This document shows, piece after piece, positions 28,568 through 32,000 of a DNA stretch of 32,000 nt; positions within the stretch are counted from its first letter, which is position 1; every line of letters begins with the position of its first letter. Location: NCBI RefSeq assembly GCF_033370915.1, contig NZ_CP104096.1, positions 2,700 through 34,699 of the forward strand, given 5' to 3'. The stretch is from Candidatus Saccharimonadota bacterium. GTDB taxonomy: Bacteria > Bacteroidota > Bacteroidia > Flavobacteriales > Blattabacteriaceae. A program made the translations under genes and the position numbers. Below the pieces are notes generated by a model. The model was given only the letters and a program-made list of their open reading frames with translations. It ran no database searches and was not told the origin of the DNA.

Positions 28568-29119
28568 ATGTCAAGAATAGGAAAAAAATATATAATAATT
28601 CCTAAAAATGTAAATATATATAAAAAAGATAAATATATATATGTAAAAGGTAAATTAGGAAATTTAAAACAAAAAATTAATAAAAATATAATTATAAAAA
28701 TATTAGATGATAAAATAAAATTAATAAATAAAAAAAATAATGAAAAAAAATATAAAAGTTTACATGGACTTTATAGAATGTTAATATATAATATGATAAA
28801 AGGTGTAAATGAAGGTTATAATAAAAAATTAGAATTAGTAGGAGTAGGATATAAGGCTATTGGAAAAGGTAAAATTTTAAATTTAAACGTAGGATATTCA
28901 CATAAAATAGTAATGAAATTTTGTAAAGAAATTAATATAACAACAGAAAATGTAAAAGGAGAAAATACAATTATAAATATTTTTTGTATTAATAAACAAT
29001 TATTAGGAATAGTAGCATCAAAAATAAGATCTTTAAAAAAACCTGAACCATATAAAGGAAAAGGTATAAGATATATAAATGAAAAAATAATAATTAAAAA
29101 GTATAGGTTGTTCATGTGA
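28568..29119 (+). CDS. rplF: 50S ribosomal protein L6 (C-terminal few residues replaced at a junction with valS sequence)
   Basis: 183-aa ORF. MSRIGKKYIIIP, LVGVGYKA, LNVGYSH and KPEPYKGKGIRYINEKIIIKK are L6 blocks. The last residues, YRLFM-stop(TGA), are read out of frame from valS-homologous DNA. Confidence 0.92.
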   Translation: MSRIGKKYIIIPKNVNIYKKDKYIYVKGKLGNLKQKINKNIIIKILDDKIKLINKKNNEKKYKSLHGLYRMLIYNMIKGVNEGYNKKLELVGVGYKAIGKGKILNLNVGYSHKIVMKFCKEINITTENVKGENTIINIFCINKQLLGIVASKIRSLKKPEPYKGKGIRYINEKIIIKKYRLFM

Positions 29120-29141
29120 TTGGAATAGAAAACAATTTACT

Positions 29142-31307
29142 ATGGATAAAAATAATTATAAATCTGTAATTAAAGTATTTATAAAATTATATGAAAAAGG
29201 AATAATATATAAAAAAAATAAATTAGTAAATTGGGATACTTATGCAAAAACTACAATTTCTGATGAAGAAATAATATATAAAAAAATAAAAAAAAATTTA
29301 TATTATATTAAATATTTTACTGAAGATAAAAAAAAATATTTAGTAATAGCTACTACAAGACCAGAAACAATATTTGGAGATACAGCAGTATGTATTAATC
29401 CAAAAGATAAAAGATATAAAAATATTATAAATTATAAATTAATAGTACCAATAGTAAATAGAGTAATACCAATAATTACAGATAAATCAGTAGATAAAAA
29501 ATTTGGAACAGGATGTATAAAAATTACTCCTGCCCATAGTAAAGAAGATTATAAAATATATAAAAAACATAAATTAAATATAATAAATATTTTTAATGAC
29601 GATGGTACATTAAATGAAAAAGGTAAGTTTTTAAAAGGTAAAGATAGATTTTATGTAAGAAAAAAAATTTATAAAATTTTAAATAAATTAGGTTATTTAG
29701 TAAAAAAAGAAAAAATAATAAGAAAAATAGCTTATTCAGATAGATCAAATACAATTATAGAAAATAAATTATCTTCACAATGGTTTTTAAAAATGAAATA
29801 TTTAATTAAACCAGTATTAAAAAAAAAAAAAAATATTATTTTTTATCCTAAAAATAAATATAATAATTTATGTAATAAATGGATTAATAATATTAAAGAT
29901 TGGAATATTTCAAGACAATTAAAATGGGGCCATAGAATACCAGTTTATTATTATAAAAATAATTTAGTAGTAGCCAAAAATTTAAATAATGCAATAAAAA
30001 AATTTAAAAAAAAATATAATAAAATTAACATAAATTATATAAAACAAGATAAAGATGTATTAGATACTTGGTTTTCTTCTTGTATATTACCAATTTCAGT
30101 ATTATATGGTATTAATAAACCTAATAATATTGATTTTAATTATTATTTTCCTATTGAAATTTTAGTTACTGGTTATGATATATTATTTTTTTGGGTTTTA
30201 AGAATGATAATGTTAAGTAGTTATTTAATAAATAAAATACCATTTAAAAAAGTATATTTAACAGGTATAGCAAGAGATAATAATAAAAGAAAAATTTCTA
30301 AATCTTTAGGTAATTATAAAAATTTATATGTTTTATTAAATAAATATGGTGCAGATGGAATTAGAACAGGTATATTAAGTACTAATTATGAATATGATTT
30401 TATTTATAATGAGAATTTATGTATAAAAGGTAGAAATTTTATAAATAAAATATGGAATGCATTTAAATTAATAATAAAAATAAAATATAAAGTTAAACAA
30501 AATAATAAAACAAAAAAAATTAATAAAATAATTGTAAAATGGTTTAAAAATATTTTATATTATAAAATATATAAATTAAATTATTATTTAGATAATTATA
30601 AAATATATAAATCATTTATTTTAATTAATAATTTATTTAAAAAAAAATTTTGTTCTATATATTTAGAGTATATTAAAAAACAAAAAACAGATAATTTTTT
30701 AATTAAAAAAACTTTTAAATTTTTTTATATTTTATTAAAAATTTTACATCCATATGCTCCATTTATTACTGAATATATTTGGAAATTATTAAAAAAAAAA
30801 AAAGATATTACTATTTCTAATTGGCCTAAAATAAAAAAATTTAATAAAAAAATAATTAATAAATTTAATTATACCTTAAATTTTATAAAATATTTAAAAC
30901 AAATAAAATTTAAAAATTCAAAAAAAAATTATGTTATTTATATATATAAAAGTTATAAAAATAATTTTAAAATATATATTCAATTAATATATAAATTTAC
31001 TTTAATAAAAAAAATAAAAATAAAAAGTAAATTAAAAAATAAAAAAAAATATTTATTATTTATTTATAAAAATATAAAATTTTTTTTATTAAAAAAAAAT
31101 ATTATTATTAATAAAAATAATGAAAATAAAAAAATATATAAAAAAATAAAATTTTATAAAAAATATTTATTAAATATAAATAATAAATTAAAAAATAAAA
31201 ATTTTTTATTTAAAGCGCCTAAAAAAATTATTAATTTAGAAAATAAAAAAAAAAAAGATATTGAAAAATTAATTATTAATTTAAAAAAAAAAATAATAAT
31301 TAATTAA
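29142..31307 (+). CDS. valS: Valyl-tRNA synthetase, 5'-truncated: lacks about the first 130 residues including the HIGH motif. Could be a split gene, a recent pseudogene or an assembly artefact.
   Basis: 721-aa ORF. In the same frame, ValRS homology continues upstream of the first ATG to about 29094 ([18 protein letters not shown], canonical RLG.S.DW.RERFTMDE), just after a TAA at 29091-29093. Downstream blocks are VNWDT, [92 protein letters not shown] (KMSKS) and the C-terminal [23 protein letters not shown]. No HIGH region exists anywhere upstream. Confidence 0.9.
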   Translation: [721 protein letters not shown]

Positions 31308-31614
31308 ATATTTTTTTATTAGATAAACTAAAATTTAATTCAGGTATTATAAATTTATTTTTTAAAAAAATAGATAATTTTTTTTTATAATAATTTTTTT
31401 TATTTTTAATTTTATTAAAAATTTCATTTTTGTATTTATTTGGATATATAGAAATATATATATTAGAATAACTATAATTTTTATTTATATAAACATATAC
31501 AACAGAAATTAATATATTTTTAAATTTATTATCAACAATAAATAATTTATTAAAAAAATAATTAATTAAATTTGAATATCTTTTTTGTTTTAATGTCTTT
31601 ATTTGTTTGATCAT
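31300..31614 (-). CDS. rbfA: Ribosome-binding factor A (diverged)
   Basis: 104-aa ORF. The layout KQKRYSNLINYFFNKLF....ISVVYVYINKNYSYSNIYISIY....LKNKFIIPELNFSL fits the RbfA pattern (R..R....I...L......VT.V.VS.DL..A.VY......LR......P.L.F). Similarity is loose. It overlaps the valS 3' end convergently by 8 bp. Confidence 0.6.
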   Translation of the reverse strand: MIKQIKTLKQKRYSNLINYFFNKLFIVDNKFKNILISVVYVYINKNYSYSNIYISIYPNKYKNEIFNKIKNKKNYYKKKLSIFLKNKFIIPELNFSLSNKKIFN

Positions 31615-31655
31615 ATATAAAATCTATATTAGATAAATAGATATATTAATAATAT

Positions 31656-32000
31656 ATGACAAATAATAAAAATGTTACTGAAAATATTAATAATATTAAT
31701 GTAACTGAAAATTTAACTAATAAAAATTTAACTAATAAAAATGTTACTGAAAATGTAACTAATAATGTAACTAATAATGTAACTGAAAATGTTACTACTG
31801 AAAATGTTACTACTGAAAATGTTACTAATGAAAATGTTACTAATGAAAATGTTACTAATGAAAATGTTACTACTGAAAATGTTACTAATGAAAATGTTAC
31901 TAATGAAAATGTTACTACTGAAAATGTTACTAATGAAAATGTTACTAATAATAATAATGTTACTGAAAATGTAACTGATAATAAAACTGAAAAAGATTAT
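31656..32000 (+). CDS. Partial ORF (5' end) of unknown identity with an N-terminal N-[VIL]-T-x repeat region; continues beyond the window
   Basis: My own translation from ATG 31656 gives MTNNKNVTENINNINVTENLTNKNLTNKNVTENVTNNVTNNVTENVTTENVTTENVTNENVTNENVTNENVTTENVTNENVTNENVTTENVTNENVTNNNNVTENVTDNKTEKDY. That is 115 codons with no stop, open to the window end. It is not in the supplied ORF track because it is unterminated. Coding status is uncertain because a repeat keeps frames open by itself. Confidence 0.45.
   Translation, partial: MTNNKNVTENINNINVTENLTNKNLTNKNVTENVTNNVTNNVTENVTTENVTTENVTNENVTNENVTNENVTTENVTNENVTNENVTTENVTNENVTNNNNVTENVTDNKTEKDY
31785..31949 (+). repeat. Perfect tandem repeat, 15-bp unit gaaaatgttacta[c/a]t x 11, with a 45-bp higher-order periodicity
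   Basis: Counted directly. The units start at 31785, 31800, 31815, and so on up to 31935. They differ only at position 14 (act vs aat), in the order T,T,N,N,N,T,N,N,T,N,N. Degenerate 12/15-bp relatives (aatgt[ta]act gaaaat / aataat) extend upstream to about 31671. Confidence 0.97.

Follow-up and report, generated by a model that had tools for sequence, protein, structure and literature searches.

The N-terminal tail of GrpE from Escherichia coli is disordered and transiently occupies the substrate site of DnaK via a hydrophobic IIM motif (PMC12915176). The protein described here belongs to the same family, and its predicted architecture is the canonical one, with a disordered tail followed by a long helix, then a helical bundle and finally a beta domain. 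Its partners DnaK and DnaJ are encoded in the same genome, and the tandem repeat that is the subject of this study is located where the E. coli protein has its tail. Unlike the E. coli tail of approximately 33 aa, and the tails of 26–42 aa in most congeners, the tail considered here has about 123–166 aa. It is formed by a near-perfect five-residue repeat with no obvious IIM-like DnaK-binding motif.

Asn-rich low-complexity and tandem-repeat insertions are found in housekeeping proteins of Plasmodium falciparum, the genome of which is very AT-rich. The present locus resembles them in that AT-biased codons (AAT, ACT, GTT, GAA) yield hydrophilic, Asn/Thr-rich repeats in non-globular parts of conserved proteins, and also in the lineage specificity and rapid turnover of the repeats. 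In contrast to P. falciparum, the host genome is that of a bacterial symbiont, only 160 kb long, and its few arrays are found only at protein termini, with a DNA sequence that is repeated almost perfectly. Slippage-prone tandem repeats within coding regions are also characteristic of the contingency loci known from surface proteins of Mycoplasma, Neisseria and other bacteria associated with hosts. However, the units considered here are multiples of three and hence cannot switch the frame, and the product is a cytoplasmic co-chaperone, not a surface antigen. Coding repeats in disordered tails are an already known kind of feature, of which the present array is a new example. The locus is a normal gene whose disordered tail contains a repeat expansion confined to its lineage; this expansion is most likely driven by slippage and tolerated.

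Identification of the gene

The window, that is, the whole stretch of DNA analysed here, is 32,000 nt long and covers positions 2700–34699 of a record consisting of a single contig of 160,463 bp with 15.3% GC. The following features of the window are referred to below.

29142–31307, plus strand: valS without its 5' end; the tRNA-synt_1 match begins at profile position 135 of 414
31300–31614, minus strand: rbfA-like gene (104 aa), divergent upstream neighbour; PF02033, 36.4 bits against a cut-off of 34.7
31656–32000, plus strand: start codon and 5' part of grpE as far as the window reaches; open reading frame from ATG 31656 in frame with the GrpE domain
31671–31784, plus strand: degenerate repeat-like codons (N-V/I/L-T-E/N/K), from the codon listing
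31785–31949, plus strand: 15-nt array of eleven head-to-tail units, four encoding ENVTT and seven encoding ENVTN
31950–32000, plus strand: single-copy tail 3' of the array, an Asn run followed by V-T-E-N-V-T-D-N-K-T-E-K-D-Y

The original prediction, made from the window alone, described a frame opened by ATG 31656 and running beyond the window. This is what the record contains: a TAA at 31650 lies in frame upstream of the ATG, and the open reading frame has 291 codons, with the stop at genome position 35230 (window coordinate 32531, 531 nt beyond the window). The domain following position 32,000, which the original prediction left to be identified, is GrpE and is in the same frame. The match to PF01025 scores 124.9 bits against a cut-off of 25.8 (E = 3.3e-36), covers profile positions 4–164 of 165 and corresponds to the C-terminal 158 residues of the protein. 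This domain is 88% identical to that of the sister species G002 and 61–70% identical to those of other congeners, and the 22 columns that are invariant across 22 GrpE homologues are common to the present protein. The gene dnaJ is located directly downstream of grpE and encodes the J, Cys-rich and C-terminal domains; dnaK is intact elsewhere in the genome (842 bits, an open frame of 647 aa). Judged by its sequence, the open reading frame is GrpE, the co-chaperone of DnaK, and we suggest annotating it as grpE rather than as an unknown protein.

The closest named homologues are GrpE proteins of Candidatus Shikimatogenerans bostrichidophilus, the best matches of the protein search being at most 70% identical; no second assembly of the present species was recovered. 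This bacterium is a Bacteroidota symbiont that supplies bostrichid beetles with tyrosine precursors (PMC10284843). The source genome is that of a Candidatus Shikimatogenerans-like Flavobacteriales symbiont of beetles. The gap between valS and grpE in G002 is only about 90 nt, and no rbfA is found between the two genes there.

Structure of the array

The unit GAAAATGTTACTAAT, which encodes ENVTN, accounts for 7 of the 11 units; the other four encode ENVTT and end in ACT, so that the two variants differ at one base (...ACT vs ...AAT). Along the array the variants (N for ENVTN, T for ENVTT) follow in the order T T N N N T N N T N N. The position and number of units are exactly as originally predicted, whereas the perfect identity claimed for them is not observed. 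Similarly, the predicted 45-nt super-period (T,N,N) is seen in units 2–4 and 6–11 but not elsewhere in the array. When one mismatch was allowed, GAAAATGTTACTAAT had 12 matches in the window against 0.03 expected from 100 dinucleotide-preserving shuffles, none of which reached this number. Among all arrays reported by TRF in the genome, the grpE array has the second-highest score.

The array is preceded by degenerate sequence, in which N-[VIL]-T-[EN] units had been proposed from about position 31671. The codons of this type are indeed there, but they keep no fixed five-codon register. TRF joins this stretch to the array with period 15, 25 copies and 83% match, the repeated sequence beyond the window (see below) being included in the count. 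A scan of species-representative genomes with the exact two-unit pattern gave no matches in other species. As far as the sequence tells, the array, a plain direct repeat, is an in-frame coding minisatellite, given that its period of 15 nt is divisible by three and no stop interrupts the frame leading into the GrpE domain.

In the protein, the repeat is located between the start codon and the long GrpE helix, in the N-terminal tail. From codon 1 to the conserved helix there is no in-frame ATG, GTG or TTG other than ATG 31656, the only near-candidates being ATT at codons 11 and 14. Hence, for GrpE to be made from a canonical start, the array must be translated. The first 115 residues comprise 35% Asn (40 of 115), 23% Thr, 17% Val and 14% Glu, and they contain no hydrophobic stretch (the maximum Kyte-Doolittle value over 11 residues is −0.14). 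From about residue 28 up to the Lys near its end, the repeat segment has neither Lys nor Arg.

A structure was predicted with AF2 for the part encoded downstream of the ambiguous base described in the next section (five units, the tail and the domain), using an alignment of 22 sequences. In the model, the repeat has pLDDT of 33–43 and no secondary structure, and the GrpE helices and beta domain have pLDDT of 79–94; the fold consists of helices at 23–59, 62–93 and 101–115, followed by six strands. The repeat segment is therefore predicted to be disordered, as it has pLDDT below 50 beside a confident GrpE fold. Of the two kinds of protein initially envisaged, a housekeeping protein with a disordered N-terminal extension and a surface or host-exposed protein, the former is borne out. 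The latter, as well as a secreted repeat protein, was rejected: GrpE is cytoplasmic, and the Kyte-Doolittle profile shows no hydrophobic leader.

Assembly junction and number of units

The first base beyond the window (genome position 34700) is a lone N. The segment 34573–34699 is identical to 34702–34828, that is, the 127 nt before the N are repeated as the 127 nt after "Na". The final sequence ahead of the N is the single-copy tail, which recurs verbatim beyond it; in total, the re-run adds five units and a second copy of this tail. The genome has only one other lone N, at position 137340, and there, too, a duplicated block, of 134 nt, has its junction at the N; this block is within another array, in the gene for ribosomal protein S2. 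Each of the two lone Ns aligns with A in one copy of the duplicated sequence and with T in the other, as expected where two conflicting pieces abut. Scattered single Ns also cluster at genome positions 82873–84341 and 146203–146344, the second cluster within a low-complexity tract rich in A; these are signs of ambiguous calls in the consensus.

The record is also incomplete approximately 5.6 kb upstream. At 29080–29145 of the window, rplF runs straight into the middle of valS. At the corresponding place the sister species G002 has rplR, rpsE, rpsK, rpsD, rpoA, rplQ and the 5' end of valS (L048:970-4440). Searches with the G002 protein and with Pfam PF01000 found no rpoA anywhere in the record. 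This gap between rplF and valS is taken as a sign of an incomplete or stitched record, not of biology. In G002, a Lys/poly-A run splits valS itself into two open reading frames, one of 699 aa and one of 176 aa (L048:4006-6605), with …KKKKI before the stop and …KKKKNITIS… after it, possibly by a homopolymer frameshift or a sequencing error; the present genome reads through at this run. Genomes of this genus in the published study, to which the present record could not be linked, were assembled with SPAdes, and the contigs were then re-assembled in Geneious; the closed genomes are 173–200 kb long, and ten further drafts consist of multiple contigs (PMC10284843).

We consider it quite probable that the block following the N is an unmerged overlap of two sequence pieces, in which case GrpE has about 248 aa with an 11-unit array rather than 291 aa. 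The alternative is a true higher-order tandem duplication of 129 nt, resulting in a GrpE of 291 aa with 16 perfect units and two tails. The block is exactly 43 codons long and keeps the frame, and the genome clearly makes tandem duplications. Nevertheless, a true duplication seems unlikely, given that an ambiguous base and a mismatch are located exactly at the junction and that the second lone N shows a similar pattern in the S2 array. The duplicated stretch is exactly 127 nt long, and 127 is a common de Bruijn k-mer size. Moreover, the record is incomplete 5.6 kb upstream, and the grpE array of a related published assembly, that of G006, is itself interrupted by a gap of 60 N.

Under the unmerged-overlap reading, the two lone Ns of the genome mark stitched repeat junctions. 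Even the count of 11 units may be collapsed, since the N N T N N pattern recurs inside the array. Taken together, the lone N, the re-run of 127 nt and the missing rpoA and valS 5' end make the copy number unreliable, and neither the array length nor the 43-codon duplication of the public record can be used as biology without read support. The first unit after the N is N-type, its counterpart in the first copy being T-type, and the piece after the N matches units 3–8 over 77 nt at a shift of 174. This would fit an allele one 45-nt super-unit shorter, which is only a hint of polymorphism.

GrpE tails of relatives and other arrays of the genome

Thirteen congeners were searched, and grpE matches were found in 12 of them. 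In ten congeners the GrpE tails are Lys-rich, have 26–42 aa and contain no repeat. In the sister species G002, the same site of grpE is occupied by an 18/36-nt array (NIDKKS/NIDKNI, 97% match). In G006, which belongs to the same genus, grpE starts with a 15-nt array (KENKI) containing the 60-N gap mentioned above (L005:1273-1450), and its GrpE is annotated as "partial" by NCBI. The units of G006 and of the present genome share GAAAAT and the 15-nt period. Finally, a 39-nt array (2.8 copies, 98%) is present at the same site of grpE in G018, which belongs to another genus of the family. Thus, four lineages have four different units at one site, with all periods divisible by three. Since the unit is different in each lineage, the arrays arise and are replaced faster than sister species diverge, with the reading frame preserved in all cases. 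The proposal that the present array expanded recently is thereby supported indirectly: the sister species, with 88% identity in the domain, has a wholly different array at this site. A search of the literature yielded no paper on tandem repeats in Shikimatogenerans.

Besides the grpE array, TRF identified three more coding arrays in the present genome. One has a 30-nt period (KINEEKNNNE-type) and encodes the C-terminus of ribosomal protein S2 (minus strand, genome 137199–137501; L034:800-1102); it is missing from all five relatives compared. Another 30-nt array encodes the C-terminus of a DUF3276 PUR-like protein (L032:462-1277). The homologues of this protein in G002 (L042:1360-2295) and G003 (L044:1462-2487) have other arrays, and the tails, rich in Lys, Asn and Asp, differ in the three species. 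The G002 protein also has an N-terminal repeat (FNKPFNKRS-type). The third is a 12-nt array (KINK/NIKK/KINE) in an orphan open reading frame of 203 aa (genome 69701–70312; L033:402-1013), which has no Pfam match. The premise that a genome under such reduction purges its repeats is contradicted by at least three further coding arrays. Formation of arrays is a genome-wide phenomenon limited to terminal non-globular segments and is not specific for GrpE.

RecA was not found in the genome, and MutS and MutL are present. Loss of mismatch repair was considered as a cause of the arrays and rejected, as both proteins are retained. Loops of 15 nt exceed the range recognized by MutS. This combination would fit RecA-independent slippage of units that are too long for mismatch repair.

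Origin and maintenance of the array

The observations are probably best explained by a coding minisatellite in the disordered tail of GrpE that is driven by slippage and tolerated, its copy number in the record being unreliable. The array would have arisen, and would continue to change, by RecA-independent replication slippage or unequal sister-strand exchange, with exchange possibly occurring between 15-nt units and between 45-nt super-units. It may persist because the unit is a multiple of three and the site is upstream of the coiled-coil, where length and sequence would be barely constrained. Probably, the tail acts as a hydrophilic spacer, the specific function of which is slight or absent, and changes in it would be nearly neutral.

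Three independent arrays at one site in one genus could also reflect selection for a long tail. According to this explanation, the long repetitive tail tunes the DnaK cycle; it might, for example, engage the substrate-binding domain of DnaK as a weak, multivalent pseudo-substrate, or have a solubilising effect as an entropic bristle. The number of repeats would then be an evolvable dial. There is a precedent in E. coli, where binding of the IIM motif of the GrpE tail to the substrate site of DnaK speeds substrate release (PMC12915176). Of the 13 congeners with a grpE match, three have an array at this site, as does one other genus, and the frame is kept in every case. On the other hand, the units are wholly different among lineages (ENVTN, NIDKKS/NIDKNI, KENKI), and no array at all is present in ten congeners. 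The ENVTN unit has one Val beside an acidic residue and no IIM-like hydrophobic cluster. Similar arrays occur in unrelated proteins of the genome, which argues for a mutational process and not for a need specific to GrpE. We therefore regard selection for the tail as distinctly improbable.

Improbable, too, is a broader scenario in which the GrpE tail is a recurrent, fast-evolving repeat hotspot of Shikimatogenerans-type beetle symbionts and the record contains two co-existing alleles differing by one 45-nt (T,N,N) super-unit. If this were true, the symbionts within one host would be length-polymorphic, and the repeat number would tune the DnaK cycle of a misfolding-prone proteome.

It is very improbable that the leader of grpE contains the array as a non-coding minisatellite or that grpE is a decaying pseudogene, with translation starting downstream or not taking place. 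Bacteroidota often lack Shine-Dalgarno signals, and the start is accordingly hard to confirm from sequence. Against both possibilities, no canonical start follows ATG 31656 before the conserved helix, and 291 codons are open in a genome of 15% GC. The domain has retained its invariant residues and its 88% identity to the sister species, and the periods are multiples of three in all four lineages (4/4). A downstream in-frame stop or frameshift with no conserved domain and no expression had been named as the outcome that would make the array non-coding; what was found is a frame open into the conserved GrpE domain.

Each unit contains N-V-T, the tripeptide for which a link to N-glycosylation had been raised in the original prediction as speculation. 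The extended sequon of PglB is D/E-x-N-x-S/T, with an acidic residue at position −2 relative to Asn; the units read T/N-E-N-V-T, with Glu at −1 and Thr or Asn at −2. The reading of the repeat as a domain exposed at the surface or to the host and N-glycosylated at these sequons can practically be dismissed: the protein is GrpE and lacks a signal-peptide-like hydrophobic segment, neither STT3/PglB (PF02516) nor a GT41-type N-glycosyltransferase (PF13844) has a match in the genome as assembled, which is incomplete, and sequons follow from composition when 40 of 115 residues are Asn.

If the array is, as we consider probable, a tolerated product of slippage, then even symbiont genomes of 160 kb keep making near-perfect coding repeats, and such repeats survive only in disordered termini, with unit lengths divisible by three and with full turnover between sister species. 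The arrays could serve as cheap and highly variable markers for following symbiont lineages, and they provide a small natural experiment on the importance of the GrpE tail. TRF also reports a 12/15-nt array (TAGTATTATTAGTAG) at positions 1502–1572 of the window, with 93% match at period 12.
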